Shown here: piece by piece, positions 1-8,880 of the stretch
How the letters are laid out: each line of letters begins with the position of its first letter
Position numbering within the stretch: position 1 is the stretch's first letter
Source: Escherichia phage vB_EcoP_ACG-C91
Reading direction: 5' to 3' (one strand)
DNA: 43,731 nucleotides
Sequence record: NC_019403.1
Translations under genes and position numbers: made by a program
Notes under the pieces: generated by a model
The model's input: the letters and a program-made list of their open reading frames with translations, nothing else
What the model was told of the DNA's origin: nothing
Database searches by the model: none

Positions 1-569
1 TCTCGCCCTCGCCCCGCCGGACGGCCCCCCCCCCTACGGGTGGACTTGCCGCTTGGCTTAGGAATTGGGCTAGGCTGGTCCGTCTTCGACGGGCTGGGCA
101 GGGGCTTGCCTTGTACTCGCTTAGTGGTACACAAGGGAGAAGGGCTAGGAAGCGCTAGGGCGCGCCTTAGTATTGGACAAGGTGATTGCCTTAGTGCAAC
201 CGCTTAGGGCTTACACAGGCCGTTTTAGGGCTATTCCTGAGCGTTTGACAGGGTATGCGGGTGTGGGCTATCTGTTCCTTTGCTCCTCACTTCGTTCGTC
301 GCTGCGACTACCTGATGTGTACCTTAGTTATTACCTTGATGGATAGCTTAGGTTAGCCTTAGTGCTTAGCTTAGTATCAACTTAGTAGTGTACCTTAGTT
401 AGTCTTAGTGCCAGACCTCAGTGATTGCACATGCAAGCATGTAAGATGCTAATAGGTCGCGGTCGGTAGACCGCTAAGAAGAAGTAATAGTAATAAGATG
501 CAGTAGGAGGAACACCAGAAACCTAGCCAACCTAGCCTATCCTAGCTCTGTATCTATTGCTTTCCTTAG

Positions 570-585
570 TCTCACATGTTAGACA
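570..585. repeat. Imperfect copy of conserved palindrome (GTCTCACATGTtAGAC)
   Basis: Matches the 16-bp palindrome found at five other sites with one mismatch. Confidence 0.4.
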
Positions 586-652
586 ACCTAGGATTAACTT
601 AGTAGTTGTGACATGTATCACATAAATAGTCTATCTTAGTGAAATTTAGTGT

Positions 653-680
653 TGACACAGGCCATCAACAGGTATACATT
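653..680 (+). promoter_or_regulatory. Candidate host sigma70 promoter (TTGACA, 16-bp spacer, ATACAT)
   Basis: Perfect -35 hexamer TTGACA at 653-658 with a plausible -10 at 675-680; early region of a T7-like phage is transcribed by host RNAP. Confidence 0.3.
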
Positions 681-835
681 AGCAATCACTGAGACGGACC
701 TAGCAAGCTGTCTCAGGTTATAAGCAGGAGAATTGATGCGTAAGCCATAGCTAGTGGATGTAGTCGCATGAAGGCTTGAGTAAGGGGCCGTTTAATACCT
801 TCTTCCTCTGGAGACAACGCTTATAACACTGCTCT

Positions 836-864
836 TTAACAATCTGCTTAGTGTAACCTATGTA
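836..864 (+). promoter_or_regulatory. Candidate host sigma70 promoter (TTAACA, 17-bp spacer, TATGTA)
   Basis: -35-like and -10-like hexamers with 17-bp spacing, about 40 bp upstream of the first small ORF; overlaps conserved GCTCTTTAACAAT element. Confidence 0.3.
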
Positions 865-901
865 TGCCGTGGTTAATTACTTATTGAATGAGGAATTAAC
901 T

Positions 902-997
902 ATGAATTATGAAGAAATGTATGAAGTCTATTTCGACTCATTAGATGAAGGAGAAGAAGCATTATCCTTCGCTGAGTTTGTGGAGGCTTTATCATGA
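902..997 (+). CDS. Small early hypothetical protein (31 aa, acidic)
   Basis: ATG preceded by GAGGA; stop overlaps ATG of next ORF (ATGA); below ORF-track size cutoff. Confidence 0.35.
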   Translation: MNYEEMYEVYFDSLDEGEEALSFAEFVEALS

Positions 998-1221
998 AAG
1001 TACAGGTAAGGGCTTACAACATGCCAGTTGATGAGATTCAGCACTTTCTAGATAAAGGCTATGATTTATGTAAGATGCGCACACCAGATAACTATGACTA
1101 CTCACCTAAATATCTGCATTATATTGATCTTAAGATGGGTAAGAAGTTAGTTATTACAGGTACTGCATATAACCGCATTATCAATGTTCTTAAAGAAGGT
1201 GCTAGTCATGACATTAAATAA
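994..1221 (+). CDS. Early hypothetical protein (75 aa)
   Basis: ORF track; translationally coupled to upstream small ORF. Confidence 0.55.
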   Translation: MKVQVRAYNMPVDEIQHFLDKGYDLCKMRTPDNYDYSPKYLHYIDLKMGKKLVITGTAYNRIINVLKEGASHDIK

Positions 1222-1387
1222 CCGTGAACTATCCGTTATCTTTACTCTGTTATGCTACATGATACGTAACGGTGAACTACTAACTAATGATGAGCAAGCC
1301 TTGTATGACCGATTTATCAATGATGGTTGGACCGATACGGTTAATCAATACCGTAACATGATAGATGAGTTGAGGGAGGGTAAATAA
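1208..1387 (+). CDS. Early hypothetical protein (59 aa; start taken at internal ATG 1208)
   Basis: ORF track 1184..1387; ATG 1208 has GAAGGTG upstream and minimal overlap with previous gene. Confidence 0.5.
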   Translation: MTLNNRELSVIFTLLCYMIRNGELLTNDEQALYDRFINDGWTDTVNQYRNMIDELREGK

Positions 1388-1611
1388 TGTATCAACATGA
1401 GGTATTCTTTGAATCATCTAGCGAAGCTATTCGTCTCCGCGATGATATGATGCAAGCTGGCGTAGGTGTTGATGTATATCACTATTTGATAGATTACGAC
1501 ACTGAATATCACCGAGTTACCTTAGTATCTGAGTATGACAACCAAGTTATTACTGAGTATCTAGGCAGTGAAGATTATGATTACGATGAAGTAATCACGA
1601 CAAATCTCTAA
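1387..1611 (+). CDS. Early hypothetical protein (74 aa, acidic)
   Basis: ORF track; TAAATAATG start/stop overlap; GAGGG RBS. Confidence 0.55.
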   Translation: MYQHEVFFESSSEAIRLRDDMMQAGVGVDVYHYLIDYDTEYHRVTLVSEYDNQVITEYLGSEDYDYDEVITTNL

Positions 1612-1740
1612 ATTAACTATTGACAACCACGGCATACAAGGCTACATTAAGCATCAAGACGGCGACGTCTTTAAACATCCCCGCTCTTTAACAATCTGGT
1701 TTGTGTCTTGATAGGCTTACTAACAGAAAGGTAAATTATC

Positions 1741-1908
1741 ATGGAAACTTTAATCGTTACCACTACAATCAACGGCGTAAGTATCAGCATAACTAAGTAT
1801 TCTTCCGAAGAGTATGAAGTGAATCACGGAATAGCTGCTATGGTGTATGACAACTTGGCAGATGCCGTGGAGCATTGGATACAGTCATGTAAGGCTGCAA
1901 TTAAGTAG
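1741..1908 (+). CDS. Early hypothetical protein (55 aa)
   Basis: ATG with AAAGG RBS; not in ORF track because under 60 aa. Confidence 0.45.
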   Translation: METLIVTTTINGVSISITKYSSEEYEVNHGIAAMVYDNLADAVEHWIQSCKAAIK

Positions 1909-2062
1909 GAAAGATAAGGCTGGCACTAGCCAGCCTATCAAGGCACAAGCCACGCTCTTTAACAATATGGGTAGTCGCTTCTTAGTCTGGATAGGTTAAA
2001 CCTAGGAGATTCTCTTGAGTCTCCTATAATGTAACCTAACTAACTAAATGAGGATTAATAAC

Positions 2063-2419
2063 ATGGCTATGTCTAATATGACTTACTCTCAGGTTTACAA
2101 CACCGCTCATGCTGCATTAGTTGAACGTATCTGGGATGATGCTATTGATTGTATCGATAACGCACATGATGCAATCCATGAGGTGGCGGATAGTACTGTA
2201 CCAATCTATTATGCTGACATCTTCTCGGTGATGGCTAGTGAAGGCATCGACCACTTCTTCGAGGATTCTGGCTTAATGCCAGACACTAAGGATGTGACGG
2301 TCGTACTACAAGCCCGTATTTATGAACAACTCACCATTGATTTACGGGAACGTGTTCAAGATATGATTGATGCGTACATCGATTCCGCTGAGGATTCAGA
2401 AGAAGAGGAGGAAGAATGA
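2063..2419 (+). CDS. ocr: Ocr-like anti-restriction protein (T7 gp0.3 homolog; DNA mimic inhibiting type I restriction-modification)
   Basis: Protein begins MAMSNMTY and contains [42 protein letters not shown] and an acidic C-terminus, matching the T7 Ocr sequence as I recall it; GAGGA RBS 7 nt upstream of ATG 2063. Confidence 0.85.
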
Positions 2420-2532
2420 AGATGGAAAGGCAATATAACTTCATCTTCTCAGACGGTGTAACCCTGAAATGTTCCTTACGATTTGCGCAGATTCGTGAGG
2501 AAGTACTAGGAACTACATACAAGCTATTTAGC
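2416..2532 (+). CDS. Possible small early ORF (38 aa) overlapping ocr stop
   Basis: ATG 2416 preceded by GGAGG (inside the ocr acidic tail); position analogous to T7 0.4-0.6 small genes; no homology recognised. Confidence 0.25.
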
Positions 2533-2549
2533 TGACACTATAAGAGAAG
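2526..2549 (+). promoter_or_regulatory. Phage-RNAP promoter-like sequence (ATTTAGCTGACACTATAAGAG)
   Basis: Close to the SP6 consensus ATTTAGGTGACACTATAGAAG; upstream of ORF 2612. Confidence 0.4.
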
Positions 2550-2611
2550 ACTTAACAAGGCGTTGCTACGGTAGCGCCTGATTAAACTTTCACTTACTAG
2601 GAGTTGAGATT

Positions 2612-2797
2612 ATGAAAACCTTGATTGGATGCTTCTTGTTGGCTTCTCTTGCTCTGGCATTTACCGCTAAAGCTGGTTATGACGCTTATAAAGTAGAACA
2701 AGCCCAGCAAGACTGGGCCAAAAAGTTCAACTTGTGCAGCAAGAGCAACACCTACGAGTACTGCAACAAAACACTAAGACACTTATGGAAAGAGTAA
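2612..2797 (+). CDS. Small secreted early protein (61 aa) with N-terminal signal peptide
   Basis: MKTLIGCFLLASLALAFTAKA-GYD: hydrophobic core plus AxA-type cleavage site; mature part has 2 Cys; AGGAG RBS. Confidence 0.6.
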   Translation: MKTLIGCFLLASLALAFTAKAGYDAYKVEQAQQDWAKKFNLCSKSNTYEYCNKTLRHLWKE

Positions 2798-2831
2798 CTA
2801 GCCTATAGCCTACCTGAGTGGGCTATGTGAT

Positions 2832-2852
2832 ATTTACTTACACTATAAGGTG
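2832..2852 (+). promoter_or_regulatory. Weak phage-promoter-like sequence (ATTTACTTACACTATAAGG)
   Basis: Partial match to the CACTATAG core; immediately upstream of ORF 2859. Confidence 0.3.
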
Positions 2853-2858
2853 ATTACT

Positions 2859-3743
2859 ATGACTACTGAAAACACCCTCGTGTCTGTCCGTGAAGCTGCA
2901 ACCGCTGAAATCAAGCAACATTTAGACAATATCGGCACTTCTTACATCAAAGTTGGTGCTTGTCTGAATGAATTACGCGGTGATTTCGAAGGTCAAAAAG
3001 ACTTTTTAGCTTATGTAGAATCAGAGTTCGGCATCAAGAAGGCACAATGCTACAAGCTGATGAGTGTAGCCCGTGTCTTTGAAGGAGACGAACGCTTTAA
3101 AGGTGTGGCTATGCGTGTAATGCTGGCGCTTGTTCCTTTCGCTGATGAAAATATAATCATGGAGAAGGCCGCAGAACTCGCCGCAGATGGCAAGCTGGAC
3201 ACTAACGCCGTAAACGCCTTGATTGAGCCTAAGAAAGAGATAAAGACCGAAACGGTACAATCTAAGGCTGAGACAGTAAAACCGCAGGAGAGCGCGACTG
3301 AGGCCGCAGAATCACAGGAAATGCAAGCGCCGCAGGTAGTGCCACCCGCTAGCGAGCAGGAGGCCGACGAATCAGCACCATGGGGAGAGGAAAGCAAGCC
3401 GGAGGCACCGAAGGCAGCGCCGCTGGATAACACGGCTAATACCGAAAACGCCGCTATGGCTAGCCTCTTAGCACAAATTAAGGCACTGACCGAGCAATTA
3501 CAGGCAGCTAATGACCGCATTGCCTCCTTAAGCAGCGCACGCGAAAGCAAGAAGGCAGCCGCGCCTATGCTGCCGCAATTCAAATCTTCCTGCTTCTATG
3601 CTCGCTTAGGTTTAAGCGCTGAGGAGGCAACGAAGAAAACAGCAGTTAACAAGGCACGCCGCGAACTGGTTAAGCTAGGCTACGGCGAAGGCCATGAAGC
3701 ATGGCCCTTAATCTCTGAGGCAGTAGAAGAATTAACTAAGTAA
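2859..3743 (+). CDS. Early protein with DUF3102-like N-terminal domain and low-complexity acidic/Ala/Gln-rich C-terminal half
   Basis: Motif IKVGACLNELRGDFEGQKDFLAYVESEFGIKKAQCYKLMSVARVF resembles the DUF3102 signature (G-x-x-L-x-E...G-x-F-x-x-W/Y...G-I/F-S-x-x-x-A-x-x-Y-M-x-L/V-A) as I recall it; C-terminal half is compositionally biased with a coiled-coil-like stretch. Confidence 0.7.
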   Translation: MTTENTLVSVREAATAEIKQHLDNIGTSYIKVGACLNELRGDFEGQKDFLAYVESEFGIKKAQCYKLMSVARVFEGDERFKGVAMRVMLALVPFADENIIMEKAAELAADGKLDTNAVNALIEPKKEIKTETVQSKAETVKPQESATEAAESQEMQAPQVVPPASEQEADESAPWGEESKPEAPKAAPLDNTANTENAAMASLLAQIKALTEQLQAANDRIASLSSARESKKAAAPMLPQFKSSCFYARLGLSAEEATKKTAVNKARRELVKLGYGEGHEAWPLISEAVEELTK

Positions 3744-3806
3744 CCTTATCGGTGGCATCTTCTTAGGTGTCACCTATTAAGGTTTCTTTCACTAGGAGTA
3801 AACAAG

Positions 3807-6434
3807 ATGCAAGACCTACACGCTATTCAACTTCAACTTGAAGAAGAAATGTTTAACGGCGGTATCCGTCGCTTTGAAGCGGACCAACAACGCCAGATTG
3901 CATCCGGTAATGAATCAGACACGGCATGGAATCGCCGCTTATTGTCCGAGTTAATCGCGCCAATGGCTGAAGGTATTCAGGCATACAAGGAAGAGTATGA
4001 AGGTAAAAGAGGCCGTGCACCGCGTGCATTAGCTTTCATTAACTGCGTAGAAAACGAAGTGGCAGCATATATCACGATGAAAATCGTTATGGATATGCTG
4101 AATACAGACGTTACCTTACAAGCAATCGCTATGAATGTAGCGGACCGCATCGAAGACCAAGTACGTTTTAGCAAGCTGGAAGGTCACGCAGCTAAGTACT
4201 TTGAGAAAGTGAAGAAGTCGCTTAAGGCTAGCAAGACTAAATCTTATCGTCATGCGCACAACGTAGCGGTAGTAGCTGAGAAATCTGTTGCTGACCGTGA
4301 CGCGGATTTCTCCCGTTGGGAGGCATGGCCTAAAGATACCTTGCTACAAATCGGTATGACCTTGCTAGAAATACTGGAAAATAGTGTATTCTTCAATGGT
4401 CAGCCTGTCTTTCTTCGCACCTTGCGCACTAATGGTGGCAAGCATGGCGTTTACTACTTACAGACCAGTGAACACGTAGGGGAATGGATTACAGCATTTA
4501 AAGAACATGTAGCGCAACTTAGCCCGGCTTATGCACCTTGCGTTATACCTCCGCGTCCGTGGGTTTCTCCTTTTAATGGTGGATTTCATACTGAGAAAGT
4601 AGCAAGCCGTATTCGTCTGGTTAAAGGCAGCCGTGAACACGTCCGTAAGCTGACCAAAAAGCAAATGCCAGCGGTTTACAAGGCTGTTAACGCTTTGCAG
4701 GCGACTAAATGGCAGGTTAACAAGGAAGTATTACAGGTAGTTGAAGACGTTATACGCCTTGATTTAGGTTATGGTGTGCCTTCATTTAAGCCGCTAATTG
4801 ACCGTGAGAACAAGCCAGCTAATCCCGTTCCTCTTGAGTTTCAGCACCTGCGAGGCCGTGAACTGAAAGAAATGCTCACGCCGGAACAATGGCAAGCCTT
4901 CATTAACTGGAAAGGTGAATGCACCAAGCTGTACACCGCAGAAACTAAGCGCGGCAGCAAGTCGGCTGCTACGGTCCGCATGGTTGGTCAGGCCCGTAAA
5001 TACAGCCAGTTTGACGCTATTTATTTTGTGTATGCACTGGATAGCCGCAGCCGTGTCTACGCGCAATCTAGCACGCTCTCACCGCAATCAAACGACTTAG
5101 GCAAAGCATTACTCCGCTTTACCGAAGGGCAGCGCCTTGATAGCACTGAGGCGCTTAAATGGTTTTTGGTGAACGGGGCGAATAACTGGGGTTGGGATAA
5201 GAAGACTTTCGACGTGCGCACCGCTAACGTGCTGGATGGCGAATTTCAAGACATGTGCCGCGACATTGCAGCCGATCCTCTAACCTTCACTCAATGGGTA
5301 AATGCTGATTCCCCTTACGGATTCCTTGCATGGTGCTTTGAATATGCTCGTTATTTAGATGCGCTGGATGAAGGTACACAAGACCAATTCATGACGCACC
5401 TACCCGTCCATCAAGACGGTAGTTGCTCTGGTATCCAGCACTATAGCGCGATGTTACGCGATGAAGTAGGTGCGAAAGCGGTAAACCTTAAGCCCTCTGA
5501 CTCCCCTCAAGATATTTATGGTGCCGTTGCGCAGGTAGTAATTCAGAAGAACTATGCATACATGAATGCAGAGGATGCGGAAACCTTCACTTCTGGCAGC
5601 GTGACTTTAACAGGTGCGGAACTGCGTAGCATGGCTAGTGCGTGGGATATGATAGGAATCACTCGCGGCCTAACCAAAAAGCCCGTAATGACACTGCCTT
5701 ACGGCAGCACACGTCTAACCTGCCGTGAGTCAGTGATTGATTATATCGTTGATTTAGAAGAAAAAGAGGCCCAACGGGCTATTGCGGAAGGGCGTACCGC
5801 CAATCCTGTACACCCTTTTGATAATGACCGTAAGGATGGCCTGACACCTAGCGCAGCTTATAACTATATGACAGCTTTAATCTGGCCTTCTATTTCGGAA
5901 GTGGTTAAAGCTCCTATAGTGGCAATGAAAATGATTCGTCAACTTGCCCGTTTCGCAGCTAAAAGGAATGAAGGCTTAGAGTATCCCTTGCCCACAGGCT
6001 TCATTCTGCAACAAAAGATTATGGCTACTGATATGCTCCGCGTATCCACTTGCCTGATGGGAGAAATCAAGATGAGTCTACAGATTGAAACGGACGTAGT
6101 GGATGAAACGGCCATGATGGGCGCTGCTGCTCCTAACTTCGTGCACGGTCATGATGCTAGCCACCTGATTCTAACGGTGTGCGACCTAGTGGATAAAGGT
6201 ATTACCTCCATTGCAGTTATCCATGATTCTTTCGGTACTCATGCAGGCCGCACCGCAGACCTACGTGACAGTCTAAGGGCAGAAATGGTGAAGATGTATC
6301 AAGGCCGTAACGCTCTGCAAAGCCTGTTAGATGAGCATGAAGAGCGCTGGTTAGTAGACACCGGAATCCAAGTGCCAGAGCAAGGAGAGTTTGACCTTAA
6401 CGAAATCTTAGTATCTGACTATTGCTTCGCATAA
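3807..6434 (+). CDS. Single-subunit DNA-dependent RNA polymerase (SP6-type)
   Basis: 875 aa; N-terminus [32 protein letters not shown] and long internal stretches match SP6 RNAP as I recall it; catalytic IHDSFGT motif; C-terminal ...FA. Confidence 0.97.
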
Positions 6435-6442
6435 TATTAATA

Positions 6443-6475
6443 GGCCATCCCTTCGGGAGTGGCCTTTTTCTTTTA
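6443..6475 (+). terminator. Rho-independent terminator after RNAP gene
   Basis: GGCCATCCC-TTCG-GGAGTGGCC hairpin followed by TTTTTCTTTT. Confidence 0.6.
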
Positions 6476-6509
6476 CCTACTACCTGTAACATTTCATTAA
6501 CATAAAAGT

Positions 6510-6525
6510 GTCTCACATGTGAGAC
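6510..6525. repeat. Conserved palindrome GTCTCACATGTGAGAC (copy 1)
   Basis: Perfect 16-bp palindrome immediately upstream of phage promoter. Confidence 0.7.
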
Positions 6526-6527
6526 TT

Positions 6528-6548
6528 ATTTACCGGACACTATAGGAT
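6528..6548 (+). promoter_or_regulatory. Phage-RNAP promoter (ATTTACCGGACACTATAGGAT)
   Basis: Matches the window consensus ATTTAC(T/C)GGACACTATAGAAG, SP6-like CACTATAG core. Confidence 0.7.
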
Positions 6549-6690
6549 AGCCGTCGGAGACGGGAAAGAAAGGGAAGATAAAGGATATAAAGGAAGTAAT
6601 AGGTATTAAAGGTTATATAGGTTATCTAGGAATACCTATTACCTTCTTCCTTCCTCTTATTGCCACTTAGAGGAAGGGCAGATCTAAGTT

Positions 6691-6706
6691 GTCTCACATG
6701 TGAGAC
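6691..6706. repeat. Conserved palindrome GTCTCACATGTGAGAC (copy 2)
   Basis: Perfect palindrome again followed by a promoter-like sequence. Confidence 0.7.
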
Positions 6707-6711
6707 TTCGT

Positions 6712-6732
6712 ATTTACCGGACAGTATAGATA
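6712..6732 (+). promoter_or_regulatory. Phage-promoter variant (ATTTACCGGACAGTATAGATA)
   Basis: Two mismatches from consensus core; upstream of gp1.1-like gene and primase/helicase. Confidence 0.5.
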
Positions 6733-6759
6733 AGATTAACTCACTTTGGAGATTTAACC

Positions 6760-6888
6760 ATGCGTAACTTTGAGAAGATGACCCGTAAAGCTAACCGTTT
6801 TGACATGGAAGAAGGGCAGAAGAAAGGCAAGAAGCTGAATAAACCTGTCCGTGATCGTGCATCTAAACGCGCTGCGTGGGAGTTCTAA
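6760..6888 (+). CDS. Small basic protein, T7 gp1.1-like (42 aa)
   Basis: MRNFEKMTRKANRFDMEEGQKKGKKLNKPVRDRASKRAAWEF resembles T7 gene 1.1 protein (MRNFEKMTKRSN...) as I recall it; GGAG RBS. Confidence 0.6.
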   Translation: MRNFEKMTRKANRFDMEEGQKKGKKLNKPVRDRASKRAAWEF

Positions 6889-6891
6889 GTT

Positions 6892-8880
6892 ATGGCTATT
6901 ATTCAGAATGTACCGTGTCCTGCCTGTCAAAAGAATGGACATGATATTACTGGCAACCATCTTATGATATTTGAGGATGGCGCGGGTTACTGTAACCGTG
7001 GGCACTTCCATGATAATGGCAGGCCATACTACCATAAGCCCGAAGGTGGCATCGAGATAACCGAGTTGCCCATTACTGGCAATATCAAATATACACCTTC
7101 TCAATTCAAAGAGATGGAGACGGAAGGGAAGATAAGCGACCCTAAGTTGCGCGCCATCGCACTTGGTGGTATGCGTATGAAAGACCGTTGGGAGGTCATG
7201 AATGAGCAAGAAAGGGCAGACCAAGAAGCAGAGTGGAAACTTGATGTTGAATGGTTCCTCACGCTTAAGCGTAAGAACCTTGTGTCCCGTCACATTCGAG
7301 GTGACATCGCAGCAATGTACGATGTGCGCGTTGGACACGATGAAGAGGGAAGAGTCAACCGTCACTATTATCCACGATATGAAAAGGGTGTGCTTGTTGG
7401 AGCAAAATGCCGGACGTTGCCGAAGGATTTTAAGTTCGGACACCTAGGTAAACTCTTTGGTATGCAAGACCTTTTCGGTATGAACACTTTGTCTCACGTG
7501 TTAGACAAGGGGAGACGAAAGGATTGCTTGCTTATTGTAGGTGGTGAACTTGATGCACTAGCAGCGCAGCAGATGCTCCTTGATTCTGCCAAGGGTACTA
7601 AGTGGGAAGGCCAGCCATACCATGTATGGTCTGTCAACAAAGGCGAGTCTTGCCTTGAAGAGATAGTGCAGAACCGTGAGCATATCGCCCAATTCAAGAA
7701 GATTATATGGGGTTTTGATGGGGATGAGGTAGGGCAGAAGCAGAACCAACAAGCTGCTCGCCTGTTTCCTGGCAAATCCTACATCCTCGAATATCCCTCT
7801 GGTTGCAAAGATGCTAACAAGGCATTGATGGCTGGCAAGGCTAAAGAGTTTGTTGATGCTTGGTTTAATGCCAAGTCATCTGATGAAGTCTTTGGTAGCC
7901 AGATTAAATCTATCGCATCTCAAAGGGGTAAGCTCAAGGCTGCACGTCCAGAGCAAGGGTTATCATGGCCTTGGCCTAAGCTGAACAAGGTAACGCTAGG
8001 TATTCGTAAGAACCAGCTTATCATTGTAGGTGCAGGTTCTGGTGTAGGTAAGACTGAGTTCCTTCGCGAAGTGGTTAAGCACCTCATTGAAGAACACGGT
8101 GAATCTGTAGGCATCATTTCTACAGAAGACCCAATGGTCAAGGTGTCCCGTGCTTTTATCGGCAAGTGGATTGATAAGCGTATTGAGTTACCGCCAACCA
8201 ACGACCCGAAAGAAGACGGATACCGTGAGGTGTTCGACTACACCGAGGAAGAAGCTAACGCTGCCATTGATTATGTGGCTGATACAGGAAAGCTATTTGT
8301 GGCTGACCTAGAAGGCGACTATTCTATGGAGAAGGTAGAGCAAACTTGCCTAGAGTTTGAGGCTATGGGCATTTCTAATATCATCATTGATAACTTAACG
8401 GGGATTAAATTAGATGAGCGTGCTTTTGGTGGGAAGGTTGGTGCACTTGATGAATGCGTCAAACGAATTGGTACTATCAAAGACCGACATGCGGTTACGA
8501 TTTTCCTTGTCTCTCACCTTACACGTCCTCCGGCAAACCGTACCCAACACGAAGAAGGTGGCGAAGTTATCCTTTCTGACTTCCGAGGCTCAGGCGCTAT
8601 CGGATTCTGGGCATCTTACGCCTTGGGGATTGAGCGTAATACAAGAGCTGAAACGCTTGATGAAAGGACTACCACGTACATCTCGTGTGTCAAAGACCGC
8701 GATCAAGGTATCTACACTGGAACCAAGGTCATGCTTAAGGGTGACATTCAAACCGGACGTTTAATGGAACCACAAGCTAGAACAAGGTCATTTGATACAG
8801 GTGAAACAAGGCAGCAAGAGGTGCCTGATTTACCGGACACTATAGAAGAGACAACCTTTGACGATGAACAGGAGTTTTAA
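6892..8880 (+). CDS. DNA primase/helicase (T7 gp4-like bifunctional)
   Basis: 662 aa; N-terminal Cys-rich zinc-binding region (CPACQ...CNRGHFH); Walker A GAGSGVGKTEF; acidic C-terminal tail ...DDEQEF. Confidence 0.95.
   Translation: MAIIQNVPCPACQKNGHDITGNHLMIFEDGAGYCNRGHFHDNGRPYYHKPEGGIEITELPITGNIKYTPSQFKEMETEGKISDPKLRAIALGGMRMKDRWEVMNEQERADQEAEWKLDVEWFLTLKRKNLVSRHIRGDIAAMYDVRVGHDEEGRVNRHYYPRYEKGVLVGAKCRTLPKDFKFGHLGKLFGMQDLFGMNTLSHVLDKGRRKDCLLIVGGELDALAAQQMLLDSAKGTKWEGQPYHVWSVNKGESCLEEIVQNREHIAQFKKIIWGFDGDEVGQKQNQQAARLFPGKSYILEYPSGCKDANKALMAGKAKEFVDAWFNAKSSDEVFGSQIKSIASQRGKLKAARPEQGLSWPWPKLNKVTLGIRKNQLIIVGAGSGVGKTEFLREVVKHLIEEHGESVGIISTEDPMVKVSRAFIGKWIDKRIELPPTNDPKEDGYREVFDYTEEEANAAIDYVADTGKLFVADLEGDYSMEKVEQTCLEFEAMGISNIIIDNLTGIKLDERAFGGKVGALDECVKRIGTIKDRHAVTIFLVSHLTRPPANRTQHEEGGEVILSDFRGSGAIGFWASYALGIERNTRAETLDERTTTYISCVKDRDQGIYTGTKVMLKGDIQTGRLMEPQARTRSFDTGETRQQEVPDLPDTIEETTFDDEQEF
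8827..8847 (+). promoter_or_regulatory. Phage-RNAP promoter embedded in the 3' end of the primase/helicase gene
   Basis: ATTTACCGGACACTATAGAAG exact consensus; encodes the DLPDTIEE residues of the helicase tail. Confidence 0.6.

Follow-up and report, generated by a model that had tools for sequence, protein, structure and literature searches.

What is the function of a 16-nucleotide sequence that recurs three times ahead of the early genes of a K1E/SP6-like coliphage? The window, by which we mean the whole 43,731-bp stretch of DNA analysed here, carries GCTCTTTAACAAT(C/A)TG in exactly three copies, starting at 831, 1683 and 1954 and all on the + strand. The shared motif GCTCTTTAACAATMTG occupies 831-846, 1683-1698 and 1954-1969, on the + strand only, and no fourth match was found in the window even when up to two mismatches were allowed; the number expected by chance is 0.10, and three or more copies were seen in 0 of 100 shuffles. 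Copy 1 (GCTCTTTAACAATCTG, 831-846, core 831-842) lies inside an untranslated leader of ~215 nt, 60 nt before the ATG at 902. Copy 2 (again GCTCTTTAACAATCTG, 1683-1698) separates ORF 1387-1611 from ORF 1741-1908, and copy 3 (GCTCTTTAACAATATG, 1954-1969) separates ORF 1741-1908 from ocr, 109 nt before the ocr ATG. None of the three copies is coding sequence, which bears out the placement in gaps before early genes given by an earlier note on this DNA. A coding reading of copy 3 was dismissed, the sole ORF over it (1847-1999) being an out-of-frame overlap with ORF 1741-1908. The segment that the earlier note had seen downstream of both copies 2 and 3 is likewise present, as TCTTGATAGGCT at 1706-1717 and TCTGGATAGGTT at 1986-1997.

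We are confident that the three repeats are BoxA elements of the rrn type, working as RNA in early transcripts made by the E. coli RNA polymerase. BoxA is an RNA signal bound by NusB and NusE. All three copies match both the gamma-proteobacterial BoxA consensus, GYTCTTTAANA (PMC5725501), and the rrn sequence GCUCUUUAACAA, and neither strand of the 43.7-kb window has any further match to the consensus (0.23 expected). The core of the 16-mer is identical at 13 of 13 positions to the boxA of the E. coli rrnH leader, and the 3' extension AATCTGG matches the boxA of the rrnH 16S-23S spacer, GCTCTTTAAAAATCTGGAT. Identity to the T7 boxA located 3' of promoter A3 is 18/18, and positions 1682-1700 of the window, CGCTCTTTAACAATCTGGT, are identical to T7 812-830. 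In equilibrium folds, the mean probability of being unpaired is 0.70 for copy 2, 0.68 for copy 3 and 0.40 for copy 1, the last being equal to the RNA average, so that copy 1, folded to equilibrium within its leader, is predicted to be ~60% paired. An Rfam scan of 1-7000 (E <= 5) returned no meaningful match, only chance miRNA and snoRNA hits; no model of BoxA, of a nut site or of a T7 RNase III site was among them.

The surroundings of the copies point to transcripts of the host enzyme. All three lie upstream of the first phage-RNAP promoter, ATTTAGCTGACACTATAAGAG at 2526-2546 on the + strand (0 mismatches); no + strand phage-promoter match occurs upstream of 2526, and this stretch is presumably transcribed by the host RNAP only. 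The two best predicted sigma-70 sites in 1-7000, both of the form TTGACA-17-TACATT on the + strand, are upstream of BoxA copies. The first (652-680, 10/12 of the consensus) has its predicted start near 687 and feeds the leader that contains copy 1. The second (1620-1648) has its predicted start near 1655, which leaves copy 2 ~28 nt 3' of the inferred start, and, as the flanking sequences and the alignment show, it is kept in most SP6-like relatives. Copy 3, together with a leader hairpin described below, would serve ocr, a gene 0.3-like anti-restriction gene (2063-2419, + strand; translation MAMSNMTY...), whose matching gene is annotated Ocr in relatives.

The element forms a conserved block of its own, whatever sequence flanks it. 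In a sample of 21 SP6-like genomes (SP6, K1-5 and 19 SP6-like viral contigs), every genome has two to three copies, each of them in sense orientation and ahead of the RNAP gene; a single stray consensus match on the minus strand was seen, elsewhere in the genome of one relative (L019). Across 55 unique instances, positions 1 to 16 are near-invariant, whereas position -1 and those before it hold less than 0.7 bits, and the invariance extends to positions 10, 12, 13, 15 and 16, which the search pattern had left free. The sequences flanking these instances can be sorted into 18 classes on the upstream side and 10 on the downstream side, in free combination, and copy 1 is conserved in relatives across eight different upstream contexts. 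Beyond the SP6-like phages, the complete genomes of K11, gh-1 and Era103 have one consensus match each, on the + strand and just past the host promoters, and one boxA match each was found in the early regions of T7 and T3. Moreover, the 17-mer GCTCTTTAACAATNTGG occurs in at least 119 viral-contig stretches and in many contexts; among the matches listed, a T7-like RNAP lies within the stored stretch at 12 loci, and none adjoins rRNA genes. The reference records of T7, T3, K11, gh-1, SP6, K1-5 and Era103 annotate no boxA feature, although the element is present in each. A search of the open-access literature gave no link between boxA and SP6, K1-5 or the Autographiviridae.

BoxA is also a joint of a modular mosaic, because a gene cassette of 271 bp is bounded by copies 2 and 3, its left and right direct repeats. 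The cassette body (1699-1953, + strand) corresponds to an alignment gap running exactly from boxA to boxA and comprises a type-b leader (with the shared segment at 1706-1717), the 55-aa ORF 1741-1908, a 3' hairpin and a spacer. The cassette is precisely missing from three relatives (L008, L013 and L020), in which a single boxA stands between the promoter and the ocr-type leader.

The closest parallel is T7, whose boxA (nt 813-825, between A3 and R0.3) has the same sequence and strand as copy 2 and likewise stands 3' of the host early promoters and 5' of an RNase III-type hairpin and gene 0.3/ocr; T3, K11, gh-1 and Era103 show the same arrangement as T7. T7 and the other Studiervirinae examined have one boxA, whereas this phage has three, two of which follow two dispersed promoters (one each) while the third follows a gene within the operon. 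The leaders of this phage cannot be aligned with theirs, and the boxA genetics come, as far as the citing literature reports them, from T7 alone. Comparison with the E. coli rrn operons is equally direct in sequence, the phage sharing the 13-nt core of the rrnH leader and the AATCTGG of the spacer boxA. It extends to the layout, with a hairpin upstream in the boxB position and a strand of an RNase III-type duplex downstream, and with more than one boxA per transcription unit (rrn layout: PMC8632103). In contrast to rrn, the downstream RNA of the phage is translated mRNA without a recognised boxC, no clear equivalent of which was identified near the phage BoxA copies, and copy 2 is nearer to its promoter (~+28). 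In lambda, nutL and nutR are also phage BoxA RNAs that recruit NusB/NusE to the host RNAP for processive antitermination in the early phase (PMC8632103), a function that may be extended to the present element by analogy. The lambda boxA is, however, off consensus, its boxB comes after boxA and the phage N protein is needed, whereas this phage has the full rrn consensus with the hairpin, where present, upstream, that is, an rrn-type, N-independent layout.

The functional side of the BoxA reading is drawn from T7 and rrn, and it is from these systems that we infer Nus binding and antitermination. BoxA would most likely load Nus factors on the host RNAP and so prevent termination of early transcription. 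We propose that transcription would start at the host promoters 652-680 and 1620-1648, and that the nascent GCUCUUUAACAAU, as it emerges, would be bound by the NusB-NusE(S10) dimer, which with NusA, NusG and SuhB, and possibly S4, would convert RNAP into the fast, pause-resistant and Rho-resistant form known from rRNA operons. The modified RNAP could then traverse the long untranslated leader and the series of small early genes and so reach ocr and the gene for the phage RNAP, and early transcription by the host RNAP probably also helps to pull the genome into the cell, as in T7. Copy 3 would operate between an upstream hairpin and a probable RNase III two-tier hairpin before ocr. That BoxA is present several times would follow from every promoter or gene module having one. 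Gp2, the inhibitor of the host RNAP, provides the genetic link in T7. As reported by the citing paper, T7 no longer needs Gp2 once its boxA is mutated (Savalia 2010, cited in PMC3709561). In the rrn mechanism, assembly is mainly boxA-dependent, the order of elements is boxB-boxA-boxC, and boxC adds to the RNase III stem (PMC8632103).

A BoxA in the early region of a phage is real, yet ordinary, since the device is already known from T7, and with a mechanism known from rrn operons and T7 no new biological question is opened. Our analysis corrects an annotation gap in the T7-group reference records and shows that SP6/K1-5-like phages use BoxA in two to three copies; by analogy, it suggests a hijack of the host rRNA antitermination signal that is conserved across several T7-group genera infecting gamma-proteobacteria. 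For the engineering of K1-specific therapeutic phages by deletion or insertion of early genes, boxA should be kept downstream of each host promoter, and insertions are likely to recombine out across the boxA repeats.

Two considerations bear on how far antitermination accounts for the element. The early genes are translated, which is itself a protection against Rho, and the need for antitermination is therefore an assumption; and one boxA is enough in T7, T3, K11, gh-1 and Era103, so that three copies are not explained by antitermination alone. An extended version, in which the BoxA copies on very abundant early RNAs would be a decoy for the limited supply of NusB/NusE/SuhB as well as antiterminators, and in which the 16-mer would also be a recombination joint for cassette swaps, appears unlikely to us. 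Were the decoy real, the seven rrn operons of the host would be starved of the antitermination complex, which would aid the shut-off of host ribosome synthesis; were the joint real, early anti-defence gene cassettes would be swapped between phages through the invariant 16-mer.

The repeats could instead act negatively, with a Nus complex on BoxA hindering downstream translation initiation and permitting Rho termination, as at suhB. There, BoxA-dependent repression is documented for a BoxA within ~50 nt of the start codon (PMC5725501), and the E. coli suhB 5'-UTR, a case of Nus-factor autoregulation, has, as here, a consensus BoxA in an mRNA leader near a start codon (PMC5725501). The distance from the end of the element to the start codon is 60 nt for copy 1 and 47 nt for copy 2, and in 18 of 18 ocr-type leaders the CUCUUU run is complementary to the GAGGA Shine-Dalgarno, a predicted and invariant pairing; because these boxA-Shine-Dalgarno pairs never vary, they carry no evidence either way. 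An element of this kind would throttle or time the first ORF, ORF 1741 and ocr. We regard it as quite unlikely, in that loss of the T7 boxA relieves the need for Gp2, as expected of a read-through antiterminator, and the T7 genetics, to the extent that the citing paper conveys them, point for the phage element to antitermination rather than to the Rho-mediated repression of suhB. Moreover, 109 nt separate copy 3 from the ocr ATG, whose Shine-Dalgarno is already paired in the leader hairpin.

Could the 16-mer be kept mainly as a recombination joint at the DNA level, an invariant microhomology without an RNA function of its own? The exchange of promoter modules and early-gene cassettes, including the 271-bp cassette bounded by copies 2 and 3, is what such a joint would produce; six upstream classes each occur with two or more leader classes, and eight upstream classes occur with the type-a leader, the switch always being at boxA. 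We nevertheless consider this very unlikely, as it leaves unexplained both the identity to the host rrn boxA and the constant sense strand downstream of host promoters. Furthermore, the single-copy phages T7, T3, K11, gh-1 and Era103 keep boxA in the same place, and mutations of the T7 boxA give a transcription phenotype, on the secondary account available. Exchange at the repeat is more plausibly a consequence, or a bonus, of a sequence frozen by its function.

The proposal of the earlier note that the repeats are host-RNAP promoters with TTAACA as -35 did not hold and is, in our judgement, highly improbable. TTAACA does agree with TTGACA at 5 of 6 positions, and the TATGTA found 17 nt downstream of it in copy 1 is conserved in type-a leaders, but TATGTA is only 3/6 and has no T at position 6, and the corresponding hexamers of the other two copies are ATAGGC and TTAGTC; none passes the promoter scan. 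At a spacing of 16 to 18 bp, none of the three copies offers a pair of hexamers resembling -35 and -10 in which the latter has its invariant A2 and T6. The conserved block takes in the GCTC before TTAACA and stops at +16 without a -10, the sequence at the -10 position varies among leader classes, and the real consensus promoters stand 30 to 180 nt upstream of the copies.

In the T7 group, RNase III cleaves the early transcripts at intergenic sites, and it requires about two turns of duplex. That the 16-mers are themselves such processing sites, as the same note had also suggested, has almost no probability: the copies are intergenic and copy 3 stands 24 nt before a strong hairpin, but folding puts no copy in a long duplex of that kind, copies 2 and 3 are predicted to be single-stranded for the most part (P = 0.68-0.70), the surroundings of copies 1 and 2 are no more stably folded than shuffled sequence (z = -1.0 and -0.03), the annotated R0.3 stem-loop of T3 (822-875) begins 30 nt past the boxA 12-mer core (781-792), and R1 of gh-1 (845-893) is 105 nt past the boxA at 728.

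The BoxA reading of the 16-mers leaves room for an RNase III site beside them. The hairpin that the earlier note had placed at about 2004-2027, where T7 has R0.3, proved to be the top of a conserved, covarying, two-tier structure and is a candidate site. This leader hairpin (1978-2053, + strand; -30.6 kcal/mol, z = -5.7) has an upper stem of 10 bp (2003-2012 with 2017-2026), an asymmetric internal loop, a middle stem (1992-1998/2032-2038) and a lower stem (1978-1990/2040-2053) in which the ocr Shine-Dalgarno GAGG (2050-2053) is paired. A consensus fold computed by RNAalifold from an ordinary MAFFT alignment of the ocr leaders was meaningless (-0.2 kcal/mol), since that alignment did not bring the divergent hairpins into register, and the leaders were folded one by one and then aligned with a covariance model. 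In this alignment, which was fitted to the model, the fold is common to 18 relatives with 97% of cells paired, and 7 of the 10 upper-stem pairs show compensatory changes.

Its two-tier fold and intercistronic position agree with those of T7-type RNase III sites, hairpins of roughly 50-75 nt, from which we infer that it is probably an RNase III processing site in front of ocr. It shares with R0.3 of T7 and T3 the position between boxA and the ribosome-binding site of gene 0.3/ocr, as well as a lower stem and, above an asymmetric internal loop, an upper stem of ~9-10 bp; the order boxA then R0.3 or R1 in T7, T3 and gh-1 matches that of copy 3 and the hairpin. The phage hairpin is, however, longer (76 nt), its basal stem pairs the Shine-Dalgarno, and no similarity in sequence or model is detectable. 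Homology to the T7-type R0.3 is not claimed, because the covariance model of the hairpin found no counterpart in T7, T3, K11, gh-1 or Era103.

Two smaller hairpins precede boxA copies. In the centroid fold, AGACG-GCGA-CGUCU (1657-1670, + strand) caps the 5' terminus of the transcript and lies 12 nt before copy 2, in a boxB-like position. Several contexts of the 17-mer, among the matches listed, have a hairpin directly after boxA, in the manner of a nut site. The GC-rich RNA hairpin AGGCUGGC-ACUA-GCCAGCCU (1917-1936, + strand; z = -4.7) lies 17 nt before copy 3, with a conserved AUCAAGG directly after it. It may occupy an rrn boxB-like position, or it may be a 3'-end stabiliser of the upstream mRNA. 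In 11 relatives the six pairs of its core are formed throughout (100%), compensatory changes are seen at two pairs, and its G-U pairs are valid in + strand RNA only.

The 16-mer GCTCTTTAACAATMTG matches the whole 43,731-bp window three times, at 831-846, 1683-1698 and 1954-1969, always on the + strand, for a chance expectation of 0.10 matches and with three or more reached in 0 of 100 shuffles. No further copy was found in the window at up to 2 mismatches, confirming the early-region repeat described in an earlier note, and all three copies are non-coding and lie, as also claimed there, in a gap before an early gene: copy 1 in the leader of the first small ORF (ATG at 902, with a GAGGA Shine-Dalgarno), copy 2 between ORFs 1387-1611 and 1741-1908, and copy 3 between ORF 1741-1908 and ocr (ATG at 2063). 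The phage is an SP6/K1E/K1-5-like podovirus (Vectrevirus): segment 500-2500 shares 95 to 97% identity with a number of E. coli K1 phages, in which the matching gene is annotated Ocr, and ORF 3807-6434 encodes an SP6-type single-subunit RNA polymerase. The two best consensus-predicted sigma-70 promoters in the first 7 kb are the + strand TTGACA-17-TACATT sites at 652-680 and 1620-1648. The first match to the phage-polymerase promoter motif, ATTTAGCTGACACTATAAGAG, is at 2526-2546 (+), and none was found upstream of 2526 on the + strand. Since host promoters lie upstream and no phage promoter does, all three repeats presumably belong to a stretch transcribed by the host RNA polymerase alone.

The 13-mer GCTCTTTAACAAT within the repeat is, letter for letter, the E. 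coli rrnH leader boxA (context ...caacTGCTCTTTAACAATttatc). The consensus that Baniulyte et al. (PMC5725501) derived for BoxA, GYTCTTTAANA, fits all three copies and has no other match on either strand of the window (0.23 expected), so that boxA is excluded from the rest of the genome. The 3' extension AAT-N-TG, as a rule with a G after it, agrees with the other rrn boxA, that of the 16S-23S spacer (GCTCTTTAAAAATCTGGATcaagc). Moreover, T7 812-830, CGCTCTTTAACAATCTGGT, is identical to window 1682-1700; this T7 boxA lies 63 nt past the A3 start, and its mutation, like A3 down-mutations, removes the need for Gp2, an inhibitor of host RNAP (Savalia et al. 2010, as cited in PMC3709561). Judged by sequence, the repeats are thus the T7 boxA in another subfamily (Molineuxvirinae), in three copies instead of one, on the sense strand downstream of host promoters. 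BoxA annotation was absent from all seven reference records inspected, and we found no mention of boxA in SP6-like phages in the open-access literature. Only the multiplicity, the rrn spacer-type extension and the use of boxA as an early-gene cassette joint are mildly new.

The suggestion that the 16-mer is a host-RNAP promoter with TTAACA as -35 was not borne out, as the hexamers at 17-bp spacing are poor -10 elements (TATGTA, ATAGGC and TTAGTC; none of the three reported by the promoter scan) and the conserved block, which begins 5 nt upstream of TTAACA, is too short, ending well before any -10. RNase III requires a duplex of roughly 20 bp, and the proposal that the 16-mer is itself a processing site failed on RNA folding, no copy lying within such a duplex in the predicted equilibrium folds. 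Folding around copies 1 and 2 is no more stable than that of shuffled controls (z = -1.0 and -0.03). For copies 2 and 3 the predicted unpaired fraction is ~70%, against an average of 40 to 48% for their RNAs, and copy 1 is 40% unpaired in its equilibrium fold, equal to its RNA average. T3 has its annotated R0.3 RNase III stem-loop (822-875) 30 nt downstream of boxA (781-792) and separate from it, and in gh-1 the annotated R1 site (845-893) comes ~105 nt after boxA (728).

BoxA extends well beyond this phage. The complete genomes of K11 (Klebsiella), gh-1 (Pseudomonas) and Era103 (Erwinia) each hold exactly one consensus match, on the + strand just 3' of annotated or inferred host promoters, and the early regions of T7 and T3 one each. 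K1-5 has three copies; SP6 has two consensus copies and a degenerate third, GATCTTTAACAAT, before ocr (1536-1548), in which C2 is changed to A where the consensus allows only C or T, with promoter and leader hairpin still intact. All 19 SP6-like viral contigs collected by their RNAP N-terminus carry two or three copies on the sense strand upstream of the RNAP gene, the sole exception to this placement being one stray minus-strand match elsewhere in one locus (L019). Among 55 unique boxA instances, the information content stays under 0.7 bits throughout the positions 5' of G1 and is near-maximal at positions 1 to 16, including positions left free by the search pattern (C10 96%, A12 100%, T13 89%, T15 85%, G16 95%). 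The extended 17-mer GCTCTTTAACAATNTGG matches exactly in at least 119 IMG/VR viral-contig stretches (L029-L147) in dozens of contexts, which argues that extended BoxA is widespread in phage DNA generally. Among the matches listed, none adjoins rRNA genes, for most a T7-like RNAP was not seen in the stored stretch, and several have a hairpin directly 3' of boxA, as in lambdoid nut sites.

Across 21 SP6-like genomes, boxA is flanked by 18 upstream and 10 downstream classes in many combinations, the switch always falling at boxA; 6 upstream classes occur with two or more leaders, and one leader class (type a) with 8 upstream classes. Because these classes recombine across an unchanged boxA, it is, in these genomes, the invariant joint of a mosaic. 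In L008 (3176), L013 (3415) and L020 (3183), three related loci, a 1620-type promoter and one boxA are joined straight to the ocr-type leader (type c); the 271 bp present in addition in the window span precisely the interval from boxA copy 2 to copy 3. This cassette (1683-1969, with boxA direct repeats) contains the leader that follows copy 2 (type b), the 55-aa ORF 1741-1908 and a hairpin at 1917-1936. The segment TCT(T/G)GATAGG(C/T)T, correctly noted earlier as common to copies 2 and 3, lies at 1706-1717 and 1986-1997, and at copy 3 supplies the 5' strand of both the lower and the middle stem in the ocr-leader hairpin. The type-b leader (...TCTTGATAGGCTTACTAAC...) reads like an ocr-type leader minus the hairpin interior, running on into the tract CTAACTAAC, which in type c is the 3' strand.

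Conserved RNA hairpins stand on both sides of copy 3. BoxA copies that come after a gene, not a promoter, have a GC hairpin plus AUCAAGG on their 5' side (window 1917-1944). The hairpin (z = -4.7) has six core pairs 100% paired in 11 relatives, compensatory changes in two pairs, and G-U pairs valid only in + strand RNA. It occupies the boxB-like position of rrn nut-like sites, which are ordered boxB-boxA-boxC (PMC8632103), and could just as well serve to stabilise the 3' end of the message upstream. A small hairpin is also common to T7 (765-790) and T3 (735-760), ~25 nt upstream of boxA, with a conserved loop ACACUGAAA and, read by eye, a compensatory stem (GUCACC/GGUGAU vs GGCGGG/GCCGCU); it is a possible boxB counterpart.

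On the ocr side, the hairpin placed near 2004-2027 by the earlier note proved to be part of a predicted 76-nt two-tier fold at 1978-2053 (+ strand; -30.6 kcal/mol, z = -5.7, 27% of the ensemble). Its upper stem pairs 2003-2012 with 2017-2026, its middle stem 1992-1998 with 2032-2038 and its lower stem 1978-1990 with 2040-2053; the upper and middle stems are separated by an asymmetric internal loop of 4/5 nt, and the lower stem takes in the ocr Shine-Dalgarno GAGG. Every relative's fold reaches this shape independently, with at least five different upper-stem sequences. In a covariance-model alignment of 18 loci, which is fitted to the model and so leans towards it, pairing holds in 97% of cells, compensatory double changes are seen at 7 of the 10 upper-stem pairs, and covariation scores 0.213, against 0.077 for shuffles and 0.03 to 0.05 for slid registers. 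The comparison with the T7 R0.3 position is therefore well supported structurally, the conserved covarying fold sharing the upper stem, internal loop and lower stem of T7/T3 R0.3; homology to these was not detectable. From this fold we infer that RNase III would cleave the hairpin. Two more predicted two-tier hairpins, 2538-2600 (z = -3.96) and 3744-3782 (z = -3.84), precede ORF 2612 and the RNAP gene, respectively, and are candidate RNase III sites at the T7 R0.5 and R1 positions. Among ocr-type leaders (loci L005, L008, L011-L013, L015 and L020-L023), one conserved set of boxA, leader hairpin and Shine-Dalgarno serves either ocr (MAMSNMTY...) or an unrelated ORF starting MERNANAYY/MKRDANAYY; hence, the leader has been exchanged independently of the gene it serves.

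We propose a model of antitermination that draws on rrn and lambda, as reviewed in PMC8632103, and on T7 genetics as summarized in PMC3709561. Nascent BoxA RNA would be bound by NusB-NusE and, with NusA, NusG and SuhB, would assemble into a ring at the RNA exit channel, suppressing pausing and blocking Rho. Modified in this way, host RNAP could then read through the untranslated leader of 215 nt and on across the small early genes as far as ocr and the RNAP gene. In T7, entry of the genome into the cell is also assisted by host-RNAP transcription, so that a rapid, termination-proof complex would bring a double benefit. The several copies are best explained by modularity: promoters 652 and 1620 each have their own boxA, and the cassette would have brought or retained a further one.

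CTTAG (mostly CTTAGT) occurs 16 times in window 1-700 and its reverse complement CTAAG once (22.9 CTTAG per kb vs 1.05 per kb in the rest of the genome), forming a strand-specific repeat array of the non-coding left end; the motif also lies 3' of boxA in type-a and type-c leaders. On the minus strand at 2021-2041, opposite the 3' arm of the ocr-leader hairpin, the phage-promoter-like 21-mer AGTTAGGTTACATTATAGGAG (3 mismatches to the degenerate consensus) is probably a chance match. Just 3' of the RNAP gene, the perfect 16-bp palindrome GTCTCACATGTGAGAC occurs twice (6510-6525 and 6691-6706), each copy with a phage-promoter-like site only a few bases downstream (6528-6548 and 6712-6732); possible roles are as early terminator/promoter modules or as a protein-binding site.
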